Source: an uncultured Alphaproteobacteria bacterium (GTDB lineage: Bacteria > Pseudomonadota > Alphaproteobacteria > RF32 > CAG-239). Taken from it: DNA of 64,000 bases. Each line of letters opens with the position of its first letter. Position 1 is the first letter of the stretch. The notes below the pieces were generated by a model. The model was not told where the DNA came from, did not search any database, and saw nothing but the letters and a program-made list of their open reading frames with translations. Location: positions 80,485 to 144,484 of the forward strand of contig CABQIK010000002.1 of NCBI GenBank assembly GCA_902464275.1. Reading direction: 5' to 3'. The position numbers and the translations under genes were made by a program. Below, piece by piece: positions 1 to 23,174 of this stretch.

Positions 1-730
1 CACGGATACAACACATGATGTTGAATCCATGAATAGAGCGGTGGAACAAATGGTTAAAGAGGCCCTCGCTTGTACCGGTGTAGAAACGGTATTAAACGCA
101 AAAGAGGAAGAAGATATTTTTGACGAAACATTCCTGAAAGAATTGGAAGATGTCAAAATGCCCAATACTAAATTCCAGCTACTGGCCAAACTTCTGGGAC
201 AGGCAATAAAGGAATATGGTAAAGTTAATAAAGTTAAAGCCGAGCATTTTACAAAATTATTAAATGACACCGTGGATCAGTATAATACCCGCGATAAATT
301 AACCTTTACCAATGAAGTAGCAACAGATACTGTAAATGCTATTAGTGAGATGGTTGAGGAAAAAGTAACTTCTCTGACGGAAAAACTTCTTGATTTGTTT
401 AAGAGTTTGAAAAGAGATAAAGAAGAATTTAAAAAGCTCGGTATTACCTTTGAAGAAAAGGCATTTTATGACATTTTAGTTGATGTCCGGGACACTCACA
501 AATTTGAATATCCGGAGGAAAAATGTAAAATTCTGGCGCAGAGAATTAAAGAATTGGTTGAAAATGCGTCTTTATATGCGGATTGGATAAACAACGATAA
601 TATCCGTAATGGACTTGCTAGTGATTTAACTAAACTTCTGTATAAAAAAGGATATCCGCCAGAATGGGATGATGAAATATTCCAAAAGATATTAGAACAA
701 GTGGAAAACTTTAAGAAATATCAGGGATAA
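1..730 (+). CDS. hsdR: Type I restriction enzyme R subunit (HsdR), C-terminal part; 5' end outside window
   Basis: Frame is open from nt 2 (TDTTHDVES-MNRAVEQ...), so the M at 29 is internal. The helical C-terminal region, including EEKAFYDILV, resembles the conserved HsdR C-terminal (DUF3387-type) domain. Stop at 728-730. Confidence 0.65.
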   Translation, partial: TDTTHDVESMNRAVEQMVKEALACTGVETVLNAKEEEDIFDETFLKELEDVKMPNTKFQLLAKLLGQAIKEYGKVNKVKAEHFTKLLNDTVDQYNTRDKLTFTNEVATDTVNAISEMVEEKVTSLTEKLLDLFKSLKRDKEEFKKLGITFEEKAFYDILVDVRDTHKFEYPEEKCKILAQRIKELVENASLYADWINNDNIRNGLASDLTKLLYKKGYPPEWDDEIFQKILEQVENFKKYQG

Positions 731-739
731 GGAGATACA

Positions 740-2389
740 ATGTATTTTAGCTCTATAAAAATAAATAAATTTCGAGGATTAGAAAATCAGGAGATTTTCT
801 TAGGAAAATATGTCACTGTTATTTCAGGATTTAATCGAACGGGAAAATCCACAGTATTAGGACTATTAGCAAATAGTAGTGAAATCAAGGTAAAGGAGTG
901 CCGACCAATAAATACTAAGCAGTTTAATGCCGAGTTCAGTAAATTATTTAATGGTAGCGAAACTTTTGATAAAAGTGGTTCGGACAAACTTGAAATCTTT
1001 GTAAAAGATGATGATTGGAATCTTGTTGAAACTAGAAAATGTAGAACGACTTGGCAAAAACTTAAAGGAGTTAATAAAAAGAGATTCAGAGTGATTCCGT
1101 ACAAATGTGATACAAAAGGCAAAAAGATCAATGATGCAAAATTTTCTTATCCAGTTTTATACCTTGGACTTTCAAGGTTGTATCCATTGGGGGAATTAAA
1201 AGAAAAAAAGACAAAAGATGATAAAGAAGGTGTTAACATTATAAAAAAAGAAATAAAATTTCCTTCCGACGAGTATAAAGACTGGTATCAACAAAATTAT
1301 AAAAACATACTTTCAATAGAGGATAGTCTTATTATAAATAATTTTGATGAATATAGTATATCTTCCTTATCTAATTATAAGAAAACAGCAATCACAACAG
1401 AAGAATACGATTCTAACGCCAATTCTTCCGGAGAAGATAATATTGGTCAAATTTTATTATCTATTTTATCATTTAAAAAATTAAGAGAGACTAAACCCGA
1501 AACAAAAGGAGGATTGTTACTAATTGATGAATTAGATGCAACTTTACATCCTGTGGCGCAAATAAGACTTTTGGAATTATTAATAAAAAGTGCAAAGGAG
1601 TACAGCTTTCAGGTTGTATTTACAACTCATAGTTTAACTATATTATCTGAAGTTTGTTCAAAGATTCAACATAATGCGATGGAGGTTAATAATATAGAAT
1701 TAGCATATTTTAATAATGCAAATAGATACTTATCAATACAGCGAAATGCAGCCTATTGTGATATTGAAGCAAATCTACTAATAAAGAAGAAATCCAAAAA
1801 TTCTTATAAAATTAAAATTTTTTCAGAAGATGAGGAAGCCAGGTGGTTTTTCAAAAAAATATATCCTAAATACGATGATTTTGATTTAAAAAATATAAAA
1901 ATTGGTTGTGAGTCATTGATTTCTTTAATGAATGCAGATATAGAATATTTTTCCAGATCGATTATTATATTTGATGGCGATGTTGCGGACAATAAACTTG
2001 ATAACATAGACCAAATTTTTAAAAGAAATAAAAATTATATTAAACTACCAGCCCATAAGGAAGATGGTGCAAAAAGTCTTAATAATCCCGAAATGGAAAT
2101 ATATAACTATTTAATAAGTCTACCCAAAGATCATCCTTACTGGATAGATAATAATGAATCTGATTTTAACTATCGTTATATCTATGACCATGGACCTAAC
2201 AGTAAGGATTATGAGCATTTAGAAGCGAGACTAAGAGCAAAAAATTGGTTTAATGACAATCTAAATTCTATTGAACAGACCAGAGTGATGGATTATTGGA
2301 AACAAGATAATGATGAACTTTTGAAAAAATTCATCAATGACTTTGATGAAATCAATAATCGAATTATGAAAAAATTAATGTTAAAATAA
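740..2389 (+). CDS. RecF/SMC-type ABC ATPase with C-terminal Toprim-like region (OLD-family-like nuclease)
   Basis: 549 aa. Walker A GFNRTGKST, signature-like SSGED, Walker B LLLIDELDATLHP, H-loop FTTHS. C-terminal acidic motifs IFSEDEE and IIIFDGDV look Toprim-like. Starts 10 nt after the hsdR stop. Confidence 0.7.
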   Translation: MYFSSIKINKFRGLENQEIFLGKYVTVISGFNRTGKSTVLGLLANSSEIKVKECRPINTKQFNAEFSKLFNGSETFDKSGSDKLEIFVKDDDWNLVETRKCRTTWQKLKGVNKKRFRVIPYKCDTKGKKINDAKFSYPVLYLGLSRLYPLGELKEKKTKDDKEGVNIIKKEIKFPSDEYKDWYQQNYKNILSIEDSLIINNFDEYSISSLSNYKKTAITTEEYDSNANSSGEDNIGQILLSILSFKKLRETKPETKGGLLLIDELDATLHPVAQIRLLELLIKSAKEYSFQVVFTTHSLTILSEVCSKIQHNAMEVNNIELAYFNNANRYLSIQRNAAYCDIEANLLIKKKSKNSYKIKIFSEDEEARWFFKKIYPKYDDFDLKNIKIGCESLISLMNADIEYFSRSIIIFDGDVADNKLDNIDQIFKRNKNYIKLPAHKEDGAKSLNNPEMEIYNYLISLPKDHPYWIDNNESDFNYRYIYDHGPNSKDYEHLEARLRAKNWFNDNLNSIEQTRVMDYWKQDNDELLKKFINDFDEINNRIMKKLMLK

Positions 2390-2446
2390 TTCTGGCCAAA
2401 TAAAAATTTTTATGTTATAAAGGAGTTGTTATAAGAGGAAATATAT

Positions 2447-3304
2447 ATGCAAAACAATACACCACTTAGATACCCTGGAGGTAAAAGCAGAATAACAGGC
2501 TTTATCTCTAAAATTATAAAAGACAACAACATAATGAACGGTAGCTATGTTGAGCCTTTTGCTGGTGGGTGTGGTGTTGCGTTAAATTTGTTGTTGGAAG
2601 GAATTGTCAAGGAAATATACATAAATGACAAAGATCGTTCAATTTACGCTTTCTGGTATTCAATTCTAAATAATTGTAAAGAATTTGTTGAAAAAATAAA
2701 CTCTACGGATGTATCGGTTGAAGAATGGAAAAGACAACAGGAAATTCAAAAGAATAAAGAACAATGTGATTTGTTTGAATTAGGTTTTTCAACATTTTTC
2801 TTAAATAGAACAAATAGATCAGGTATTATTAAAGGCGGGATAATTGGTGGATTACAACAAAACGGACAATGGAAACTTGATGTCCGTTTTAACAAGAAAA
2901 AATTAATAGAAAAAATTTTGAAAATTGCTAGATATAAAGAGAGTATACATCTTTATAATTTAGATGCTGTTGATTTTTTAGATACAATTGTATCTCAATT
3001 AGATGTAACTAATACTCTATTTTATTTAGATCCTCCATATTATGTAAAAGGAGGACAACTTTATATGAATTACTTTAAACATGAAGATCATGTAAGAATT
3101 TTAAATGCTGTTAAGAAACTAAAGCATCATTGGTTAGTTTCGTACGATAATCATAAAGAAATTAACGAATTATATGACGGCATAAAAAATATAACATATC
3201 TGTTACGTTATACAGCAGGAACAAAATATAATGGATCAGAAATAATGTTTGCTAGTCCTGATTTGATATTCGACGAAACTGCACAGCCCTTAAAAATTAA
3301 GTAA
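2447..3304 (+). CDS. D12-class N6-adenine DNA methyltransferase (Dam-like)
   Basis: 285 aa with RYPGGKS, SAM motif EPFAGGCGV and catalytic DPPY (FYLDPPYY). RBS AAGAGGA lies upstream of the ATG. Confidence 0.88.
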   Translation: MQNNTPLRYPGGKSRITGFISKIIKDNNIMNGSYVEPFAGGCGVALNLLLEGIVKEIYINDKDRSIYAFWYSILNNCKEFVEKINSTDVSVEEWKRQQEIQKNKEQCDLFELGFSTFFLNRTNRSGIIKGGIIGGLQQNGQWKLDVRFNKKKLIEKILKIARYKESIHLYNLDAVDFLDTIVSQLDVTNTLFYLDPPYYVKGGQLYMNYFKHEDHVRILNAVKKLKHHWLVSYDNHKEINELYDGIKNITYLLRYTAGTKYNGSEIMFASPDLIFDETAQPLKIK

Positions 3305-3309
3305 CATGA

Positions 3310-4596
3310 TTATTTTTTAGAAAAATAATACTTCAGTATATCTGCAACACAATATGACAAATGCAATATATTATCTTTATCGTATGCTATTTCTCCATGT
3401 GCATATTTTGCTAACAATCCCTCTATATTCTCATTAGTATTCAACCAATTTTGTGTAATTACAGAGAGATTTAAGCATTCTTGAGACATTTCTTTTTTTG
3501 CTTTGTTAACGAAGTTTCCATATACATTCTTGTCCGAGGATATAATTTTTCTATTATTCTCTTTTTCAAATTGCTCGCGAGCAGCAAATTCCAGAAGTAA
3601 TCTTAAAGACATTCCTATAATAGGATAAATAATATCCTCTTTAATACTTTTATAAATTTCATCAATAGCTAAGTACAAATCATTTGTTTTTCCGGGTACT
3701 AAGCTCAAAGTTTCACCGAAAAGAGTCTCAGCTTTTTTTGCCCTTCTTGTTTTACGGTATACTTTTGTTTTATCAGCTTCTGGGGTTCCATAAGTAACAT
3801 TTTTAACTGGTCCCTTATTGTCTGTTTCAGAATATATGTTAATTCTATTTTCTATTCCAGTTTGAAGCTCCTTGATAGCCTCAATTGGATTTCCTCTATT
3901 TTTTCTGGTAGAAATATGTTCTTTATTAACAACTGAGACTACAGAATCTAACACCTCTTTAGCTTCATTTGGATTATATATACTAACCAGTTGGTTATTT
4001 TTTATTGCAAATCCCAATTTATGTAAATTATCTTTTTTCAACACTTCATTTTTTACAAAATCCTGATTCATACACTTATTATTCTCAATAATATGAGTGC
4101 TATCATTGATGATTAAAAAGTCAGACTTTTCCTTTCCTCTGTGTCTATATAAAAAATAATCTCTTTCTAATGCTTTCCATGATCCTGTTTCTACATGCTT
4201 TCTTTCAATATTATCTAGAGCTGTTTCTTTGTCACATACATTGCAAGGAATTTTATCTAAATTAAGGAAGTGTTCAATATTGCTAGGTAAGAACAATTTT
4301 CCCATAATTGATTGATATAATGTTTGATTTTGCAATATTTTAATTAGTGCAAGTCTTCTATTTCCGTCATAGACAATATAATCATCTTTATCTTTAACTA
4401 CAGTTGGAAGCTCACTAAAATCATAATGAGAGCCCATTTTATTTAAAAGTTTATCTAAGTTCCATTTTTCATGATCATCTTGAAGTGCATGTGATATAAT
4501 TTCAAAATCACTAGCTTCCTTATTAATAGGATCTCTTGGATTTTCACTCCATAAATGTAGTTTATTAATTTCTATATATTCAATTTGTTGTAACAT
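3310..4596 (-). CDS. ParB/Srx N-terminal-domain protein with long uncharacterised C-terminal region
   Basis: ENPRD and YDGNRR motifs fall within the first ~90 aa; the remaining ~340 aa are unassigned. The ORF track starts at TTG 4608; ATG 4596 is preferred, though neither has a strong SD. Converges on the methylase gene with 5 nt between stops. Confidence 0.65.
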   Translation of the reverse strand: MLQQIEYIEINKLHLWSENPRDPINKEASDFEIISHALQDDHEKWNLDKLLNKMGSHYDFSELPTVVKDKDDYIVYDGNRRLALIKILQNQTLYQSIMGKLFLPSNIEHFLNLDKIPCNVCDKETALDNIERKHVETGSWKALERDYFLYRHRGKEKSDFLIINDSTHIIENNKCMNQDFVKNEVLKKDNLHKLGFAIKNNQLVSIYNPNEAKEVLDSVVSVVNKEHISTRKNRGNPIEAIKELQTGIENRINIYSETDNKGPVKNVTYGTPEADKTKVYRKTRRAKKAETLFGETLSLVPGKTNDLYLAIDEIYKSIKEDIIYPIIGMSLRLLLEFAAREQFEKENNRKIISSDKNVYGNFVNKAKKEMSQECLNLSVITQNWLNTNENIEGLLAKYAHGEIAYDKDNILHLSYCVADILKYYFSKK

Positions 4597-4744
4597 AAAA
4601 CAGTCCAATAGGTATAAAAGTGTTAAAGATAAGTATGCGTATAGTAGGATATTATAATGAAAAATTCAAGAAAATACTATATTGTTTACTTTTTTATGGT
4701 ATTTGTAATCATATTTTTTTGCAAAAAAGGGATATTTATCTATC

Positions 4745-5209
4745 ATGATTAAAGTTCTGTTTGTATGTCTGGGGAATATTTGTCGGTCACCGATGGCGCA
4801 GTTTGTGTTTAAGCAAATGGTTAAGGAGCGCGGTTTGTCTGACCAGTTTGAAATTGATTCCGCCGCAACTGAAAGTTACAACGAAATGTGTCACGCCGGC
4901 ATTCATCATGGCACGCGCGAGATGTTGAAATCCATGCATGTGCCGTTCGAGGAGCATTATTCCCGCCGCATTCGTCCGCGCGATTATGTTTATTATGACT
5001 ATATTTTGGCGATGGATGGCAGCAACATTGAGGACATTCAATCACTTATAGGTCCAGATACGGGACACAAAATCCATCGTCTTCTTGATTTTACGAATAA
5101 TCCGCGCAATATTCGCGACCCTTGGTATACCGGCAATTTTGATGAGAGCTATTGTGATATTTACGAGGGCTGTCAGGCGTTTTTAGAACATTTATTGGAG
5201 GAGAATTAA
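4745..5209 (+). CDS. Low-molecular-weight protein-tyrosine phosphatase (LMW-PTP/ArsC fold)
   Basis: 154 aa with P-loop CLGNICRSP (CX5R-S) near the N-terminus and a DPWYTG loop near the C-terminus. Visibly GC-richer than its neighbours. Confidence 0.88.
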   Translation: MIKVLFVCLGNICRSPMAQFVFKQMVKERGLSDQFEIDSAATESYNEMCHAGIHHGTREMLKSMHVPFEEHYSRRIRPRDYVYYDYILAMDGSNIEDIQSLIGPDTGHKIHRLLDFTNNPRNIRDPWYTGNFDESYCDIYEGCQAFLEHLLEEN

Positions 5210-5213
5210 ATAA

Positions 5214-5972
5214 ATGAACTCTGAAATAGAATTAATTCCATTTATTAAACAAGCGCTCATAAATATAGAGACCAAAGAATTTAAAAGGACTAATAGTACA
5301 GCCATTTTATCTCTTAGAGTTTTATCTGGAGCGATTTTTGCGCTTTGCCGAGATGCTTTTACGTTATTGGAAAATAATAGAATATTTACAGCCTGCTCAT
5401 TAACATGTCAGGCGATTGAAGCGCAAATACAATTGTTATGTATTGATAAAATGTTTGATACAAAAGGCAGGGATTACTATGAATTTGCTTTTGTAGAACA
5501 ATTAAGAAGTTTATCAATAAATCCGCAATGGCAGGAGAAAACGCTTTTAAGAATGCACCACTATAATTGTGAAAGATTTTATACCGGTAAAGGTAAAAAT
5601 ACATCAGATATTGATAGCTATCATAAAAACTGGTATAGATCATTTGCTAACAGTATAAAAGACTTAAGCAAGATTGCTTTTCCTTATTTTAAGGAAATAT
5701 TTCATTCTCAAGGCATTGTTTTTGTAGAGGAAGATTTAGATATTGATTTGCTTTATGAAAATTACCAGACTTTATGTTCATTTAAGCATTTATCACCGTT
5801 TATTGTAGGAGAAACTTTCCAAGTACAAGGTAAATTACAAGAGGAACATAAGATTAATCACAAGGAAGTGGCTTTAACTAGTATATATACAGCACTTATA
5901 TCAGTAATATTAGTTCTTAATCGACATGGTGAACAAATACCAATTGAAGGATGTTTATTTAATAGAGCTTAA
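5214..5972 (+). CDS. Hypothetical protein (helical, no recognised motif)
   Basis: 252-aa ORF whose ATG lies 4 nt after the phosphatase stop. AT-rich composition unlike the phosphatase gene. Confidence 0.6.
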   Translation: MNSEIELIPFIKQALINIETKEFKRTNSTAILSLRVLSGAIFALCRDAFTLLENNRIFTACSLTCQAIEAQIQLLCIDKMFDTKGRDYYEFAFVEQLRSLSINPQWQEKTLLRMHHYNCERFYTGKGKNTSDIDSYHKNWYRSFANSIKDLSKIAFPYFKEIFHSQGIVFVEEDLDIDLLYENYQTLCSFKHLSPFIVGETFQVQGKLQEEHKINHKEVALTSIYTALISVILVLNRHGEQIPIEGCLFNRA

Positions 5973-6331: not shown

Positions 6332-7318
6332 ATGAGCTTATTTTTGGATGGCAAGCAGTATTTTGAAAAGAAATATACAAATGAAAGTAATTTTGAACAA
6401 ACTATTTATCAAAATTACAGAATGCTTTTTGGTAATAATACACTTTACATAAATTCAAAACAAAAGATTAAAACAAACACCCATAAAGGAACGATTCCTG
6501 ATGGATACCTTTTTGACTTTGAGTTAGAAGATTTTTATTTAGTTGAAGTAGAGTTAGCAAAACACGATGCTTATGATCATATCCTTCCTCAGATTACAAA
6601 ATTTTTTAATGCCTTGACTGAAAAGAGCAAAAAAGAGCTTATAGATAATATAGATCATATTATTAATTCTGATGAAAAACTAAAAAAAGAATTCCAAGAA
6701 CGTAATAAAGGTAAAGAAATTCACCGTACCATTTCTGATATCATCAATAATTCTTCAAAAATTTTACTTATTATTGATGATAATAATCCGTCGCTGAGAG
6801 AGATTAGTTCTCTCTATTCAGAGTGGGAAAATGTAAAAATTTTAGTAATAAAGGAATTTTCTGGTAAAGATAGATCAATTTTCACGTCTGAACCAGATTT
6901 TGCTATTTTGGATACTTCTGAATCTAATTTTGAAACAAGCATTGATGCATCAAATTCTGAATACACAGTAGAATATCACCTTCAAAATAGTAATAACTTC
7001 ATAAAGGATATATATAACTCTCTGGAAGAAAAATTGAAAAATTATCCAGAGATAGTGTTTAATGTACAAAAATATTATATTGCGCTGAAAAGGAAAAGAA
7101 ATTTTGCTTACTTAAAGCCCAAAAAGAACAGTTTAAAGATTGTTCTAAAGCTACCTTATAAACAAGTACTCTCCAAAGTGAAGCATTATCAAGTAAAGGA
7201 GTGTACACCTCCAGTGAAGAATTTTTATGGTGCAGATTGTTGTTGGATTAAAGTTGACAACGCAAATTATGTTGGTGAGGTCTTAAAAGTTTTAGAAGAA
7301 GCCTATCTATCAAATTAG
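6332..7318 (+). CDS. PD-(D/E)xK-like nuclease-fold protein with DUF5655-like C-terminal domain
   Basis: 328 aa. IPDGYLFDF ... FYLVEVELAKHD fits a PD-(D/E)xK core. The C-terminal YYIALKRKRNFAYLKPKKNSLKIVLKL region resembles DUF5655. RBS AGGAGAA. AT-rich. Confidence 0.6.
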   Translation: MSLFLDGKQYFEKKYTNESNFEQTIYQNYRMLFGNNTLYINSKQKIKTNTHKGTIPDGYLFDFELEDFYLVEVELAKHDAYDHILPQITKFFNALTEKSKKELIDNIDHIINSDEKLKKEFQERNKGKEIHRTISDIINNSSKILLIIDDNNPSLREISSLYSEWENVKILVIKEFSGKDRSIFTSEPDFAILDTSESNFETSIDASNSEYTVEYHLQNSNNFIKDIYNSLEEKLKNYPEIVFNVQKYYIALKRKRNFAYLKPKKNSLKIVLKLPYKQVLSKVKHYQVKECTPPVKNFYGADCCWIKVDNANYVGEVLKVLEEAYLSN

Positions 7319-7623
7319 TCCACTTCAATCCCCATGTAACGGCAGTATGAGGAACCGGACGGGTCAACGTAAAGTGTTGGCTTGCCTTGGCATTTTAAGG
7401 CAACTACTTGGCGGTGGTTTTCATCATCATAACCGCCTTTGCCGGATAAAAAGATGTAATCGTCAAGTGGTGATCGGCACACAGCATTATACCAGACCGG
7501 AGGCAGGTTGACCGTTTCTGCTACCATCACTTCTTCGGCCTGCACGTTATAGCGCTGACATAATTCCATAACTTCATCGATATCTGAGGGCTTCCGGACC
7601 ATGTAAATCTTAACTGTTTTCAT
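7315..7623 (-). CDS. Small hypothetical protein (102 aa)
   Basis: RBS AAAGGAAATAC precedes the ATG. GC-richer than flanks. The 5' leader is homologous to that of 5955..6212. No domain assigned. Confidence 0.55.
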   Translation of the reverse strand: MKTVKIYMVRKPSDIDEVMELCQRYNVQAEEVMVAETVNLPPVWYNAVCRSPLDDYIFLSGKGGYDDENHRQVVALKCQGKPTLYVDPSGSSYCRYMGIEVD

Positions 7624-8083: not shown

Positions 8084-9373
8084 ATGTTATTAAGTTTCTC
8101 TGTGTCAAATTTCGGATCATTTAAAGAAAAAGCTACTTTTTCTATGTTTCCGGGGAAAATTTCCAAACAGCATGAAAACCATGTCTTAGGATGTATGCAA
8201 TATAAAGCATTAAAAGGGGCGGCTCTTTACGGAGCTAATGCCTCAGGTAAATCCAATTTTGTAAAAGCAATTGCGGCACTTAGAGCTATAATTGCAGGAG
8301 AACCTACCAAAAATTTGCTTTTAAATCAGTTTAAACTCGATAATTCGTACTCAGAAACTGAATTCGAGATTGTTTTTCAATATAATAAAGTAACATATCA
8401 ATATATTCTGCGCACAAATGGGGTTAATATTCCGTTTGAGCAATTAGCAATAGTCCAAAGATATGGGGAATTAAAGCCACTATTTACACGAGAAAATGAA
8501 AATGTAACGATAAGTTCCTTACTATCAAAAAGTGCAGATTGGTATAAAAATAGGACATTTCAGGCAACTAATGCTTATTTATTTAAGCTATGGCAGGATG
8601 GGATTATTCCAAATCAAAAAAAGATCAGTGGATCAAAGCATATTATCAATGCAATAGATTTCTTTTACAGGCTGTTTGTTATAACTCCACAAAGCCTTGC
8701 TAATCCTGTAGCTTTTTCTTTATTCTTCCAACGCAAAGATTTTCAATTGTTTTTGAAAAAATTATTACATGTTGCTGATTTGGGAATTACTGATATTAAA
8801 TGGGTACCTCTTTCAAAAGAAGATAGTGAGAAATATTTTAAGCAGGTAATATCAAGAATAAATGAACAACACGAATATGGAACAATTATATCGAAAAACG
8901 ATTTAGGCGAAGTGCTTGCTTTGGATATCAGTCCTTCCGGGCAAAAAGTTCATGCACTTAAAACAATACATAATGGTGTAGAATTTAACATTTCCGAGGA
9001 ATCTGCCGGAACAGTGCGCTTAATTGATTTAGCATTATCTTTCTTCTTTTTACAGGAGCAAGATATGTGTCTCATAATTGATGAGCTTGATTGCCATTTA
9101 CATCCGTTTTTGAGTAAATTCTTGCTTCAACATCATATGGAAACGACAGAAAACAAAGGACAATTAATTGTTACATTACATGATTTAAATTTAATGTCGC
9201 AAGAAATTTGGCGTACAGATGAAATATGGTTTGCAGAAAAACGCCAAGATGGTTCTACTGATCTGTATTCGTTATACCAGTTTTCTCCTCGCTTTGATAA
9301 AAATCTTCAGAAAGGGTATATGCAAGGAAAGTATGGCGCAATTCCTATGATAGGAGATTTCAAAGATGAGTAA
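8084..9373 (+). CDS. AAA_15/AAA_21-type ATPase (AbiLi/RloA-like)
   Basis: 429 aa with Walker A GANASGKSN, Walker B LIIDELDCHLHP and VTLHD. TTGACT -35 at 8024-8029. Confidence 0.8.
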   Translation: MLLSFSVSNFGSFKEKATFSMFPGKISKQHENHVLGCMQYKALKGAALYGANASGKSNFVKAIAALRAIIAGEPTKNLLLNQFKLDNSYSETEFEIVFQYNKVTYQYILRTNGVNIPFEQLAIVQRYGELKPLFTRENENVTISSLLSKSADWYKNRTFQATNAYLFKLWQDGIIPNQKKISGSKHIINAIDFFYRLFVITPQSLANPVAFSLFFQRKDFQLFLKKLLHVADLGITDIKWVPLSKEDSEKYFKQVISRINEQHEYGTIISKNDLGEVLALDISPSGQKVHALKTIHNGVEFNISEESAGTVRLIDLALSFFFLQEQDMCLIIDELDCHLHPFLSKFLLQHHMETTENKGQLIVTLHDLNLMSQEIWRTDEIWFAEKRQDGSTDLYSLYQFSPRFDKNLQKGYMQGKYGAIPMIGDFKDE

Positions 9374-9947
9374 TTTCGGACAGCGCTCGCAATTTAAGCT
9401 AATTATTCAGCTGTTTTTCGAGGGTAAAACGGAACTGGATTATTTGCAAAAGTTTATTCGTCAACGCAACAAGAATACATTAATTAGATTAAACAAGATA
9501 TTGATTAACCCTAATCCTCTGACTTTAGCGCAAGAGTCGGTAGAAAAGTTTGATGATTTAAAAATGAATAATTCTGAAGTATGGGTAGTGTTTGATCACG
9601 ATGGTAGAGATACGGAAGTTAGGAACGCTATTGATTATATAAATAAAAGCGGAAAAGATATTCATATAGCCTTTATGAAACCTTGTATTGAAATATGGCC
9701 TCTGATGCATAACGGAATTGATAATGTTACGACACCATCAGCGGCACAATCAAAACTAGAAAGCATTATGCCATCTTATGACCATGATAGAAATCCATAT
9801 TTCGATCTAGATAAAATGCAAAATTATGAAGGTGCGGTGGTAAAAGCAAAACAATGGCAAACGTCATTATCAGGCGATCCGGAATATAATTCTGCCAAAT
9901 ATGCAGGCATTTATAAATTAACTGAAAAAATAGCTGGTGTGGAATAA
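9366..9947 (+). CDS. RloB-family (Toprim-like) protein (AbiLii-like)
   Basis: 193 aa; the start overlaps the upstream stop by 8 nt. FEGKTELDY, VVFDHDGRD and KPCIEIW follow the RloB motif pattern (CEGxxTExxY / D.D / NPCFE.W). Confidence 0.75.
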   Translation: MSNFGQRSQFKLIIQLFFEGKTELDYLQKFIRQRNKNTLIRLNKILINPNPLTLAQESVEKFDDLKMNNSEVWVVFDHDGRDTEVRNAIDYINKSGKDIHIAFMKPCIEIWPLMHNGIDNVTTPSAAQSKLESIMPSYDHDRNPYFDLDKMQNYEGAVVKAKQWQTSLSGDPEYNSAKYAGIYKLTEKIAGVE

Positions 9948-10301: not shown

Positions 10302-10928
10302 ATGTCAGTAACTATAAAGGATAGAATACTTTATTTAATCCAAAAAAAAGGAAGAGGTATAGTATTTTCTTCTCAGGATTTTATACCAAAATTTAAAAGA
10401 TGGGAAGTTGATCGTTCTCTTACAGATTTGGAAAAAGAAGGCAAGATTGTTCGAATCATTCCAGGGCTGTATGCCTTTCCTAAGTATAGCCAGTTACTTA
10501 AAGAATATGTTGTACCTGATATAGGAACAATTGCTCAGGGCATCGCTCGCAAAAATGATTGGAAAATTTTTCCAGAAGGAAATACAGCTCTTCTTTACTT
10601 AGGTTTATCGACACAAGTGCCTGCTAAATATATTTACTTATCAAGCGGTAGGCACCGTAAGTATGATATAAACGGTACAATTTTGGAATTTAAGGAGTTA
10701 AATTCTAAAACTATTTCCATAAGTGATAAAAATACAAATCTTGTTGTTCAATCCATTGCTGCATTGGGGAAAATTGCCGCAAGTGAAGAGAGCTTTATTA
10801 AAAAACTCTCAAAGTGTTTTTCGCCGGAAGAATGGGTAAAGATTGAATACAAGGCCAAAAAAGTAACATCATGGATATTAGAAGTAATTGCAAAAGCAAA
10901 GGAATTTTCAAATGATGAAGATTATTAA
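10302..10928 (+). CDS. AbiEi/DUF6088-like type IV antitoxin (transcriptional regulator)
   Basis: 208 aa with a winged-helix-like N-terminus (..LEKEGKIVRIIPGLYAF..) and an LGLSTQVP motif. Located immediately upstream of an AbiEii gene. Confidence 0.75.
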   Translation: MSVTIKDRILYLIQKKGRGIVFSSQDFIPKFKRWEVDRSLTDLEKEGKIVRIIPGLYAFPKYSQLLKEYVVPDIGTIAQGIARKNDWKIFPEGNTALLYLGLSTQVPAKYIYLSSGRHRKYDINGTILEFKELNSKTISISDKNTNLVVQSIAALGKIAASEESFIKKLSKCFSPEEWVKIEYKAKKVTSWILEVIAKAKEFSNDEDY

Positions 10929-11964
10929 CTCATCAACGGAAGAAAGAAATCTTTTATTTACGAGAGTGTCTGAATCTACACATATCCCGCTTGCTATGGT
11001 TGAAAAAGACTTTTGGGTTTGCTTTGTGCTTGCGAGAATATTTTCTGATGCAGAATTAAGAGATGCATTACGCTTCAAAGGCGGCACCTCACTTTCTAAA
11101 GGCTACGGACTTATAAAGAGATTCTCTGAAGATTTAGATTTAATTTTGGATAAATCCCTTGTTCTTGGTGACGAAGATATTTTCAAATCCTCTTATAAAA
11201 AACAAAGAGAATTTTCAGATGTCATTTCGGAAAAAACAGCAACGTATATATCAACAATTTTGAAATCTAAAATAGAAAATGTTTTAAATGATGCAGTCAA
11301 AGTTTATACAGATGCTGAATATGCGGAGATAACACCTTCGTATAATCCGGGAAAGATTGACAATAAATCATTGCACATTGTTTATCCGAAATCAGCGAAT
11401 GATACATATTTGCGCCCGGATATATTGCTTGAAATCGGGATAATGTCAGCAAGAACTCCCTGTGAGGACAGAAATATTACATCCTATGTTGCTCAGACCT
11501 TTCCTCAACTTGCATTAGAATCTTGTAATGTACCAACAGTAAAACCTATTCGAACATTTTGGGATAAAGCAACAATTTTACATAGAGAATTTTATCGTCC
11601 GGCCACGAAATATAACAAGCAGACAGATTCAGAAGAACCAAATTATACACCGGTGCGATACTCTCGGCATTATCATGATTTGTATCAACTTGGAAATTCT
11701 TTTGTAAAGGACGAAGCTCTTGCTGATAGAAATTTGTTAGCTGATGTTGTGGATCGTAAAGACAAATTATATCATTGCCCATGGGCAAAATATGATGAGT
11801 GCCTTACAGGTAAAATGCATTTATTACCAAACGAAAATAACAAGAGTGTAATACAGGAAGATTATAAAGCTATGCAGAATATGATTTATGGAGAGGTTCC
11901 TTCTTGGGATGAGATAATAAAATATCTTACAGAATTGGAAAAAGAAATAAATCAGTGTAAATAA
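10912..11964 (+). CDS. AbiEii/AbiGii-family nucleotidyltransferase toxin
   Basis: Contains the KGGTSLSKGYGLIKRFSEDLDL signature. ATG 10912 (RBS AAGGAA) is preferred over 10888. Overlaps the antitoxin gene by 17 nt. Confidence 0.82.
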   Translation: MMKIINSSTEERNLLFTRVSESTHIPLAMVEKDFWVCFVLARIFSDAELRDALRFKGGTSLSKGYGLIKRFSEDLDLILDKSLVLGDEDIFKSSYKKQREFSDVISEKTATYISTILKSKIENVLNDAVKVYTDAEYAEITPSYNPGKIDNKSLHIVYPKSANDTYLRPDILLEIGIMSARTPCEDRNITSYVAQTFPQLALESCNVPTVKPIRTFWDKATILHREFYRPATKYNKQTDSEEPNYTPVRYSRHYHDLYQLGNSFVKDEALADRNLLADVVDRKDKLYHCPWAKYDECLTGKMHLLPNENNKSVIQEDYKAMQNMIYGEVPSWDEIIKYLTELEKEINQCK

Positions 11965-21062: not shown

Positions 21063-21194
21063 AAAAATTTTGATTTAGACAAAAAATACCGCAAAATGAG
21101 ACAATAAGCAAGTAAAAAATGAAAAATTTTGCATTTTATGGTTTTATTTTGCAAAATAACCGCTATTATCTTGCTTAAAGGAGTTATCGCAAGT

Positions 21195-23174
21195 ATGCAG
21201 GAATTTAAAATAGTCAGCCCGTTTGAGCCGTCCGGCGACCAACCGGAAGCGATTAAAGAACTATGCGAAGGCTTAAAGCGCGGCGACCGCTCGCAAGTGC
21301 TGCTCGGCGTTACCGGCTCGGGCAAAACCTTTACCATGGCTAAAATTATTGAGCAATCAAAGCGCCCTGCCCTGATTATGGCGCCCAACAAAATTTTGGC
21401 GGCGCAGTTATACTCTGAAATGAAAGAATTTTTTCCTAATAACCGCGTGGAATATTTTGTTTCATACTACGATTACTATCAGCCGGAAGCTTATATTCCC
21501 AAAACCGACACCTATATTGAAAAAGACTCCGCGATTAATGAACAAATTGACCGTATGCGGCACGGCGCAACCCGCAATGTGTTAGAAGAAAACGATGTTA
21601 TTATCGTGGCCTCGGTTTCATGTATTTACGGTTTGGGCAGCATGGAGTCATACTCATCAATGGCGTTCGGCTTAAAAGTCGGCGATGTGCTTGACCCGCA
21701 GGATATTTACCGCAATTTGGCGGAACTGCAATATGAGCGCAATCAAATAAATTTTGTGCGCAGCACCTTCCGCGTCAACGGCGATACCTTAGATATTTTT
21801 CCGGCGCACTATGAAGACCGCGCGTGGCGGATTTCATTTTTCGGCGATGAAATTGAAAGCATCAGCGAAATTGACTCGCTTACCGGCAAAAAGACTGCCG
21901 AACTGAGCGAAATTACCGTTTATCCTGCCAATCACTATGTTACTCCGCGTCCGGCGCTTTCGCAGGCGATTACGCACATTCGTGAAGATTTGGGAATAAG
22001 ACTGCAGGAGCTTAAAGCCGAAAACAAACTTTTGGAAGCGCAGCGTTTAGAGCAGCGCACCCGTTTTGATTTGGAAATGCTTGAAAGCACCGGTCACTGC
22101 AAAGGCATTGAAAACTACTCGCGCTATTTAACCGGCCGCGCTCCGGGAGAACCGCCGCCGACTTTGTTTGAATATTTGCCGAAAAACGCGCTGTTGTTTG
22201 TTGACGAGAGCCATATTTCCGTGCCGCAAATCGGAGCAATGTTCCGCGGCGACTTTAACCGTAAAAGCACGCTGGCCGATTACGGCTTCCGTTTACCATC
22301 ATGTATTGACAACCGCCCGCTCAAGTTTGAAGAATGGGACCGCATGCGTCCGCAAAGTATTTTTGTTTCCGCCACCCCCGGCGATTGGGAGCTTGAGCAA
22401 AGCAAAGGCGTATTTGCCGAACAGGTAATTCGCCCGACCGGTTTAACCGACCCGATGTGTTTGGTGCGTCCGGTTGAAAACCAAATTGATGACTTAATGA
22501 ACGAGTGTAAAAAGACCGCCGCCAACGGCGAGCGGGTGTTGGTTACTACCTTAACCAAAAAAATGGCGGAAGATTTAACCGAATACCTCAAAGATAACGG
22601 CTTAAAAGTGCGTTATCTGCACTCGGATATTGACACCTTAGAGCGTATTGAAATTATCCGCGACCTGCGCTTGGGCGTATTTGATGTTTTGGTTGGCATT
22701 AACTTGTTGCGCGAAGGTTTGGATATTCCGGAATGTTCGTTGGTGGCAATTTTGGACGCCGACAAAGAAGGGTTTTTGCGCTCCACCCGCTCTTTAATTC
22801 AGACTATCGGGCGCGCGGCGCGCAATGCGCACGGGCGCGTAATTTTATATGCCGACAAAATCACCGGCTCCATTAAAGCTGCGCTTGATGAAACCAACCG
22901 CCGCCGCGAAAAACAAATCAAGTATAATATTGAACACGGCATTACCCCGCAAACCATTAAAAAGAGCATTTCTTCCACCTTAAAAGAAATGACTGAAACC
23001 GACTTTGTAAAAGATGATGCGGCAAGTAAAGAAGATGTTAAAAATATTGAAAAGAAAATTAAAGAATACACCAAATTAATGAAAGAAGCCGCGCTCAATC
23101 TGGAATTTGAACAAGCGGTTATCTACCGTGACAAGCTCAAAGAGCTTGAAGCATTAGCCATTAAAAATTTATAG
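21195..23174 (+). CDS. uvrB: Excinuclease ABC subunit B
   Basis: [28 protein letters not shown] Walker A, helicase motifs and a C-terminal UVR domain. ATG 21195 with RBS AAAGGAG is preferred over 21129. Confidence 0.95.

Follow-up and report, generated by a model that had tools for sequence, protein, structure and literature searches.

The three-gene cassette and its products

We analyzed a 64,000-nucleotide (nt) stretch, hereafter the window, of contig CABQIK010000002.1 (assembly GCA_902464275.1) from an uncultured Alphaproteobacteria bacterium, with a focus on a compact cassette near its start that encodes an OLD-family ATPase, a D12-class DNA methyltransferase (hereafter the methylase) and a ParB-like protein. 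A preliminary description of this DNA had set these three genes apart as one module; the three open reading frames (ORFs), the motifs that it quoted, the spacings and the AT-richness are all present, and most of the motifs are invariant in each family. The genes, as given by the ORF list, and the cassette as a unit are as follows.

740-2389, forward strand: OLD-family ATPase gene, 549 amino acids (aa)
2447-3304, forward strand: methylase gene, 285 aa
3310-4608 or 3310-4596, reverse strand: ParB-like gene, 432 aa from a TTG or 428 aa from an ATG
728-4605, no strand: the three-gene cassette, delimited by the DNA shared with related strains and forming the most AT-rich part of the window

The ParB-like gene is confirmed, but the length of 430 aa first given for its product is not; we place the start at the ATG at 4596, which gives 428 aa, because the homologues begin there. 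The genes are tightly packed: the stop codon of the upstream hsdR gene (728-730) is followed by a 9-nt spacer holding a GGAG ribosome-binding site and by the ATPase ATG at 740, a 57-nt gap separates the ATPase gene from the methylase gene, and the stop codons of the methylase and ParB-like genes converge with 5 nt between them (3305-3309).

By blastn, the related loci L002 and L003 align with the window from 728 to 4605 (3879 nt, 83 % identity) and have unrelated DNA upstream, and comparison with locus L001 gave a matching span of 740-5184. The GC contents of the three genes are 28.2, 29.1 and 28.6 %, and no other 3.9-kb stretch of the window, which averages 39.3 %, is as AT-rich as the block as a whole (28.5 %); the gene that starts at 4745, by contrast with the AT-rich cassette, has 43.9 % GC. 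A sigma-70 promoter scan was uninformative in such AT-rich DNA (38 promoter-like sites against 28 expected), and a terminator scan of it found none. Given the boundary at 728-4605 against L002 and L003, the single composition and the recurrence of the three genes in four other lineages, they behave as one module, as had been proposed, and this cassette is horizontally acquired.

Judged by its motifs and predicted fold, the 549-aa protein is an OLD-family ABC-ATPase/Toprim protein and a predicted nuclease, with an N-terminal ABC ATPase, a Toprim domain in the C-terminal part and a conserved helical tail of ~110 aa. Its main motifs are listed with the residues that are invariant among 21 homologues.

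827-853, forward strand: Walker A, G30-F-N-R-T-G-K-S-T38; G30, N32, G35, K36, S37 and T38 invariant
1514-1552, forward strand: Walker B and D-loop, LLLIDELDATLHP (aa 259-271); D263, E264, D266, H270 and P271 invariant
1823-1981, forward strand: Toprim catalytic core, reaching from glutamate E363 of SEDEE (D364 and E366 alongside) to D412-G-D414; invariant

In addition, the ABC signature NSSGEDN (aa 228-234) keeps N228, S229, G231 and D233, and the H-loop TTHS (aa 295-298) keeps H297 and S298, in the same homologues. Among the Pfam families named in the preliminary description, AAA_15 (5.5e-16) and AAA_21 (8e-11) match the ATPase above their cut-offs and MethyltransfD12 matches the methylase, but Toprim was not found in the ATPase, nor ParBc in the ParB-like protein. 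PADLOC, likewise named there, identified the methylase and the ParB-like protein as PD-Lambda-5_B and PD-Lambda-5_A but returned only generic matches for the ATPase (NsnB, HEC-04, AriA, GajA and ATPase-Toprim_I-B, the last spanning aa 245-436). An NCBIfam search of the ATPase gave nothing above cut-offs, and in PHROGs it corresponds over its full length to phrog_3940 (7e-125), annotated "function unknown". At E ≤ 1e-30, 674 cluster representatives (50 % identity) belong to the family. For the predicted structure (mean predicted local distance difference test score, pLDDT, 76), the best Foldseek match is the Thermus scotoductus OLD protein 6p74 (2e-11, 517 columns), followed by GajA and then by the retron Eco8 OLD effector, all three matching over the full length; identity to 6p74 is ~16 %, with sequence likeness limited to the ATPase motifs. 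For the insert that separates Walker A from the ABC signature, the model is partly beta-rich and of low confidence.

The ATPase fits no published OLD class, whether standalone, Gabija, retron or PARIS. Class 1 proteins stand alone, and a D12 methylase lies beside the homologues of this ATPase in 38/38 plus a further 22 loci. For class 2 (Gabija), no UvrD/PcrA-like helicase is present in the block or in related loci, and the PADLOC GajA models cover nothing but the ATPase motifs of the 549-aa protein. For class 3 (retron), the window holds no reverse-transcriptase ORF and no Rfam family. For class 4 (PARIS and AbiL-type), the ATPase and Toprim domains are fused here, and the AriA and AriAB models match partially. 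The ATPase was accordingly not taken for a Gabija, PARIS, AbiL, Septu or retron protein, as the defining partners of those systems are absent. This agrees with the earlier view of an OLD-like protein lacking a GajB or DUF4435 partner: neither a UvrD-type nor a DUF4435 gene lies in the block, and an RloB gene further downstream (9366-9947) belongs to an AbiL pair.

The methylase (2447-3304, forward strand) is a D12-class (alpha) DNA methyltransferase of the PD-Lambda-5_B subfamily, matching the PADLOC model of that name (PDLC04018) at 1.5e-122 with aa 2-280 on model positions 2-280 of 291. PD-λ-5 was found by functional selection in E. coli, confers unusually broad phage protection (Vassallo et al., 2022; PMC9519451) and has been described as a compacted "RM+Abi" system, that is, restriction-modification (R-M) plus abortive infection (PMC9519451). 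The protein also scores as PADLOC MTase_II (5.9e-104) and matches Pfam MethyltransfD12 (PF02086; 7.7e-23, 81.9 bits against a cut-off of 22 bits), and EPFAGG of motif I (aa 36-41) and DPPY of motif IV (aa 195-198) do not vary across the family. It had been labeled a Dam-type N6-adenine methylase. The D12 family holds, but the score falls below the NCBIfam dam (TIGR00571) cut-off (72.4 vs 114.85 bits), and among solved structures the protein is most closely related to the N4-cytosine enzyme M.CbeI (7m6b, 5.7e-33, against 3e-10 for DpnM and ~3e-4 for Dam). Because this alpha-class N4-cytosine enzyme is the nearest structure, D12-class membership does not fix the modified base; the earlier label is a family-level call, and the base could be N6-methyladenine (m6A) or N4-methylcytosine (m4C). 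PD-λ-5 had to be cloned in a host with mrr deleted (PMC9519451), a requirement that implies an active methylase and is compatible with m6A without proving it. Since the methylase family, including its central loop region, is well conserved, similar specificity across the family is suggested. Kinship with the non-specific adenine methylase M.EcoGII was rejected, as that enzyme is of the beta class and of another family.

The ParB-like protein resembles PD-Lambda-5_A and comprises the following parts.

3310-4596, reverse strand: PD-Lambda-5_A-like protein, 428 aa, with an N-domain of ParB/Srx type, then a helical middle and, at the C-terminus, a HEPN-like helical domain
4354-4545, reverse strand: ParB/Srx signature motifs ENPRD (aa 18-22) and DGNRR (aa 77-81), from the alignment
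3313-3699, reverse strand: C-terminal helical (HEPN-like) domain, aa 300-428, with R332, R340, K397, H400 and G401 invariant

All ten motif residues (E18, N19, P20, R21, D22, D77, G78, N79, R80 and R81) are invariant in 18 homologues. Nineteen PADLOC PD-Lambda-5_A models match the protein, the best at 1.2e-14 over aa 12-347, and hhalign against canonical PD-Lambda-5_A gives a probability of 92.7 for the N-terminal 255 aa alone; on these alignments the protein belongs to a short (~430 aa), distant PD-Lambda-5_A subfamily. Its predicted structure has a pLDDT of 81.5, and Foldseek relates the N-domain to ParB CTPase N-domains with a probability of 0.99, but with E = 7e-3 and low template modelling (TM) scores. 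No Pfam or NCBIfam family matches the protein, and a sequence search of its family against PDB gave no matches. On its motifs and the fold match, but not on a ParBc profile, the ParB domain of the preliminary description is a putative ParB/Srx domain. A HEPN domain in PD-λ-5 is listed in the literature.

Partners of the methylase across related loci

To place the cassette among its relatives, we examined loci anchored on the ATPase and loci anchored on the methylase. Homologues of the ATPase (27-87 % identity) have a methylase beside them in all 38 ATPase-anchored loci, directly adjacent and in either order in 37 of these and 1.5 kb off in L011, and the methylases tested from these loci match PD-Lambda-5_B at 1e-96 to 1e-123. 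In prophage contigs, 60 loci carry a full methylase of the subfamily; 22 of them encode the ATPase, 18 have a match to a ParB-like hidden Markov model (HMM), and a further 8 encode a PADLOC-verified PD-Lambda-5_A. These last were missed by our narrow HMM, and PADLOC recognized them as canonical PD-Lambda-5_A in 8 of 10 neighbors tested, drawn from the 20 loci with neither an ATPase nor an HMM match. From these counts, either of two partners can accompany this methylase subfamily, and the two do so about equally often. Over both searches, ATPase homologues lie beside a PD-Lambda-5_B-type methylase in 60/60 loci (38 + 22), and the linkage is obligate among the loci examined. The preliminary description had weighed the possibility of a complete known single-gene system with no conserved linkage to its neighbors; the ATPase does not score as one, and none of the loci examined lacks a methylase linked to it.

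The two-gene form, methylase and ATPase alone, occurs in E. coli in P2-like prophages, between the replication endonuclease and portal genes (the old/tin hotspot), where it is found in 15/5426 complete genomes and is annotated merely as "DNA adenine methylase" and "AAA family ATPase". An example is locus L129 (AR_0013, NZ_CP032204.1, 4470582-4473142), in which the OLD-type gene of the hotspot (old and tin in P2 itself) is swapped for another with a methylase partner. The same pair lies at the end of a Clostridium butyricum prophage. Pairing of the methylase with a ParB-like protein, as in PD-λ-5, is also seen in L040, L041-43, L126 and L133-135; the canonical PD-Lambda-5_A locus of L074 was sought in the E. 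coli genomes without a match. Large MmeI/Eco57I-type (type IIG) R-M genes adjoin the cassettes of several loci unrelated to one another, L004-L006 and L131/132.

Starting from the short ParB-like subfamily, 5/11 sampled lineages have all three genes, with a single methylase each, and the other 6 have the ParB-like protein and methylase alone, so that the link between methylase and ParB-like protein is obligate in this sample too. The gene orders of the three-gene form are given below, with A for the ATPase, M for the methylase, P for the ParB-like protein, and > and < for direction.

A>M><P: window and L001-3
P>A>M: L039 (Pasteurellaceae)
P>A><M: L044/45
A>P>M: L131/132
P>M>A: L127/128

In L131 the OLD-like gene is split into ORFs of 458 and 80 aa (3414-4995), whereas it is intact in L132 (529 aa, 3406-4995); the split is either a sequencing error or a natural inactivation of one effector. 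The components of the three-gene form have different closest relatives. The window's ATPase and methylase are nearest to the ATPase-methylase pair of L004 (53 % and 61 %). In L039 and L132, the closest relatives of the methylases come from ParB-like/methylase pairs, and those of the ATPases from an ATPase-methylase pair. As the component phylogenies disagree, the three-gene form was probably assembled more than once.

Proposed methylation-based defense and its alternatives

Collectively, these data lead us to regard the cassette as a probable modular, methylation-based anti-phage defense, in which one methylase would mark self DNA and two unrelated effectors would depend on that mark; the self-marking, the cleavage targets and the cooperation of the effectors are the inferred parts. 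The preliminary description had already suggested a modification-dependent distinction of self from non-self, and this is still the most economical reading. More tentatively, and with somewhat less than even confidence, we propose that the ATPase represents a methylase-linked OLD class that supplies a restriction or abortive arm, and that the methylase family is an interchangeable hub for OLD effectors, ParB/HEPN effectors or both. Convergent or tightly packed methylase/effector layouts are typical of R-M systems. The methylase would modify a short, common motif on host DNA, and one or both effectors would recognize incoming unmodified DNA. In the OLD-type enzyme, binding or hydrolysis of ATP may license Toprim cleavage, with either unmodified DNA (direct restriction) or tRNA (abortive) as the putative target, and the ParB/HEPN-like protein would form a second, mechanistically different effector arm. 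Both kinds of target have precedents: the Thermus and Vibrio class 1 OLD enzymes act on DNA, and P2 Old and PARIS are now reported to act abortively on tRNA (PMC10568477, PMC12445682, PMC11464382).

Several observations weigh against the proposed defense by shared methylation. In the 60 methylase-anchored prophage loci the two effectors never occur together, so that the three-gene form is a minority configuration, and it is confined so far to the short ParB-like subfamily. The methylase and the ATPase co-diverge weakly (Mantel r = 0.26, p about 0.01), compared with r = 0.73 (p about 0.03) for the methylase and the ParB-like protein. In neither effector was a recognizable domain for methyl reading or target recognition found, and recent work on OLD proteins describes triggers unrelated to methylation, for example RecBCD inhibition and anti-restriction proteins. 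For the ParB-like arm, alignable homology to canonical PD-Lambda-5_A reaches the N-terminal two thirds or less, the canonical Rx4-6H motif was not found in the alignment of the HEPN-like domain, and the best HEPN fold match of that domain, 2hsb, is weak (TMt 0.52, probability 0.6). The kinship of the methylase to the N4-cytosine enzyme M.CbeI belongs on the same side.

A different role for the ATPase is suggested by the gene upstream.

29-730, forward strand: C-terminal 233 aa of a type I HsdR, a context feature and not a conserved part of the module (T1RH-like_C 2.6e-50 in Pfam, REase_I 1.5e-38 in PADLOC)

A full hsdM-hsdS-hsdR operon (hsdR of 1077 aa) followed by the three genes is present as identical copies in at least four metagenome samples. 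The ATPase could guard this upstream R-M system in the manner of PARIS, PrrC or RloC, sensing anti-restriction proteins and cleaving tRNA or DNA through its Toprim domain so that infection is aborted, with PD-λ-5 as a separate system. The ATPase gene lies just after a restriction subunit repeatedly, 9 nt past the stop codon of a type I subunit in the window and of a type III subunit in L002/L003, and 117 nt past a different hsdR in L001, and in L135 (5001-10317) a ParB-like/methylase pair like that of PD-λ-5 is embedded in a type I operon, between hsdS and hsdR. OLD-ABC modules reportedly serve BREX and R-M systems as backup effectors (PMC12839542), and P2 Old and PARIS are abortive tRNases triggered by anti-defense proteins (PMC12445682, PMC11464382). 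However, most homologues have no upstream R-M gene, and the invariant neighbor is the D12 methylase, so we consider a guard function unlikely. The attachment to a type I R-M operon that the preliminary description reported is thus true at the window locus but not conserved in relatives, whose cassettes adjoin other R-M types or none: upstream of the block, the type I system of L001 is another, unrelated one, a type III mod/res pair takes this place in L002/L003, and most of the distant homologous loci (the E. coli P2 hotspot, the Clostridium prophage end, L004-L007 and viral contigs) have no R-M genes upstream.

Two further observations concern loci with such R-M systems. In L136-L139, the identical copies of the locus, hsdS varies between a 372-aa form with a clear Methylase_S match and a 370-aa form with a weak one; as hsdS differs between samples and the flanking genes are the same, variation of the specificity subunit in the type I system is suggested. 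In L135, two ThsB-like TIR genes lie just upstream of the embedded pair.

The first 12 kb of the window are a defense island, comprising the type I R-M system, the cassette, AbiL and AbiE. The AbiL-type pair is complete (8084-9947), with an AbiLi ATPase at 8084-9373 (PADLOC, 2e-75) and an overlapping RloB/AbiLii gene at 9366-9947 (Pfam RloB, 5.7e-17), and it is followed at 10302-11964 by a toxin pair of an AbiEi-like protein (DUF6088/AbiEi_4) and an AbiEii nucleotidyltransferase. With so many systems close together, the cassette itself could be two independent neighbors, a PD-λ-5 pair and a class 1-type OLD protein that is self-sufficient and makes no use of the methylase. Defense by a class 1 OLD protein alone is known (PMC10568477, PMC13261556), and the missing joint occurrence of both effectors in the 60 prophage loci points the same way. 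On the other side, the ATPase is always found with the methylase subfamily in the 38 ATPase-anchored and 22 methylase-anchored loci, including the P2-hotspot two-gene cassettes with nothing else, all five three-gene arrangements have a single methylase, and the block boundary takes in all three genes. We therefore hold two unconnected systems to be improbable.

Alternatively, the methylase-nuclease pairs may be primarily addiction or competition modules of mobile elements, acting by post-segregational killing or superinfection exclusion, with the methylase as antidote to a toxic nuclease. Type II R-M systems can behave as selfish addiction modules, many homologues of the cassette lie in prophage accessory sites and at prophage ends, and the block is horizontally acquired. 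Yet addiction is compatible with defense, the E. coli prototype of PD-λ-5 protects against phages experimentally (PMC9519451), and the window cassette lies in a chromosomal defense island and not in a prophage; addiction as the primary role has little probability in our assessment.

Other genes of the island vary in composition. The gene at 4745-5209, with the 43.9 % GC noted above, encodes a low-molecular-weight phosphotyrosine phosphatase amid AT-rich island genes, and a phosphatase gene is also found near the cassette in L001, L002 and L003, with intervening genes in L002/L003. An AT-rich gene for a 252-aa protein with no family match (5214-5972) and an AT-rich DUF5655 gene with a weak PADLOC PDC-S18 match (6332-7318; 7.5e-10) may be further defense genes; in L002/L003 a SIR2 gene adjoins the DUF5655 gene. 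On the reverse strand, a 102-aa ORF (7315-7623, 46.6 % GC) has no Pfam, PADLOC or NCBIfam match and shares 73 % DNA identity with L001. Past the defense island lie polysaccharide biosynthesis genes and uvrB (21129-23174).

Comparison with known systems

The preliminary description had recognized no named system in this combination. For one half of it a name does exist, since the methylase and ParB-like protein correspond to PD-λ-5; for the methylase-OLD half no name was found. Neither PADLOC v2 nor NCBIfam includes a model specific to that pair, it is unmentioned in the papers on the P2 hotspot, and although it is widespread, we could not find a name for it or a test of it in PADLOC v2, NCBIfam, PHROGs or reviews of the OLD classes. 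Current defense-finding tools would label such loci as an orphan or type II methylase and a generic ATPase.

OLD nucleases are widespread and their triggering is still being worked out, and the published classes are defined by partner: none, a helicase, a retron or a split Toprim. A methylase-linked class, if true, would provide OLD enzymes with a built-in signal for self and non-self, and would offer a simple genetic handle, the methylase being on or off. If the methylase is indeed a hub, a single epigenetic mark would control two immune responses that differ in mechanism. PD-λ-5 appears to be half of a larger modular family, as in prophage contigs its methylase partners with an OLD-type protein about as often as with the named A protein. 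The three-gene form suggests that defense systems can be built by sharing one modification enzyme, and bears on how direct and abortive responses cooperate.

Among known systems, PD-λ-5 is similar to the cassette in its full-length PD-Lambda-5_B methylase, in an adjacent gene with a ParB-like N-terminal region, in a two-gene logic that resembles R-M, and in its frequent location in prophages and defense islands. It differs in that the A protein of the cassette is short and distant, and the OLD-family gene lies outside the PD-λ-5 definition; by sequence comparison, the methylase and ParB-like protein are a new, distant member of PD-λ-5. Class 1 OLD proteins (P2 Old, 6p74, Vibrio OLD and E. coli YbjD) similarly combine an ABC ATPase and a Toprim domain in one polypeptide and include the best structural match, and the E. 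coli homologues of the cassette ATPase occupy the P2 old/tin hotspot. That class, however, is defined as standalone, whereas the cassette ATPase family is always found by a D12 methylase and has its own conserved helical C-terminal tail. GajA (class 2), the retron Eco8 effector (class 3) and PARIS AriA/AriB (class 4) likewise use an OLD-type ATPase and Toprim in phage defense, with ATP or nucleotide state likely gating the nuclease; the cassette has no GajB helicase, no reverse transcriptase or non-coding RNA and no split DUF4435, and the partner is instead a DNA methyltransferase.

Type II R-M systems share the arrangement of a small methylase by a putative nuclease, convergent or in tandem, and the methylase scores as MTase_II. 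The effectors of the cassette are OLD-type and ParB/HEPN-like, in contrast to the PD-(D/E)XK, HNH, GIY-YIG or PLD nucleases of those systems, and two of them share one methylase. No restriction endonuclease model is found in the best 25 of 79 PADLOC matches of the ATPase or among the PADLOC matches of the ParB-like protein, nor does either protein have a restriction endonuclease match in Pfam. GmrSD, DndB and SspE-type DUF262 proteins resemble the ParB-like arm, whose own ParB/Srx-type N-domain is putative, in joining such an N-domain with DGxxR to a C-terminal effector in immunity based on DNA modification. Those systems carry HNH/DUF1524 or other partners and attack modified DNA or use phosphorothioation, whereas the cassette pairs an amino-methyltransferase with a HEPN-like C-domain.

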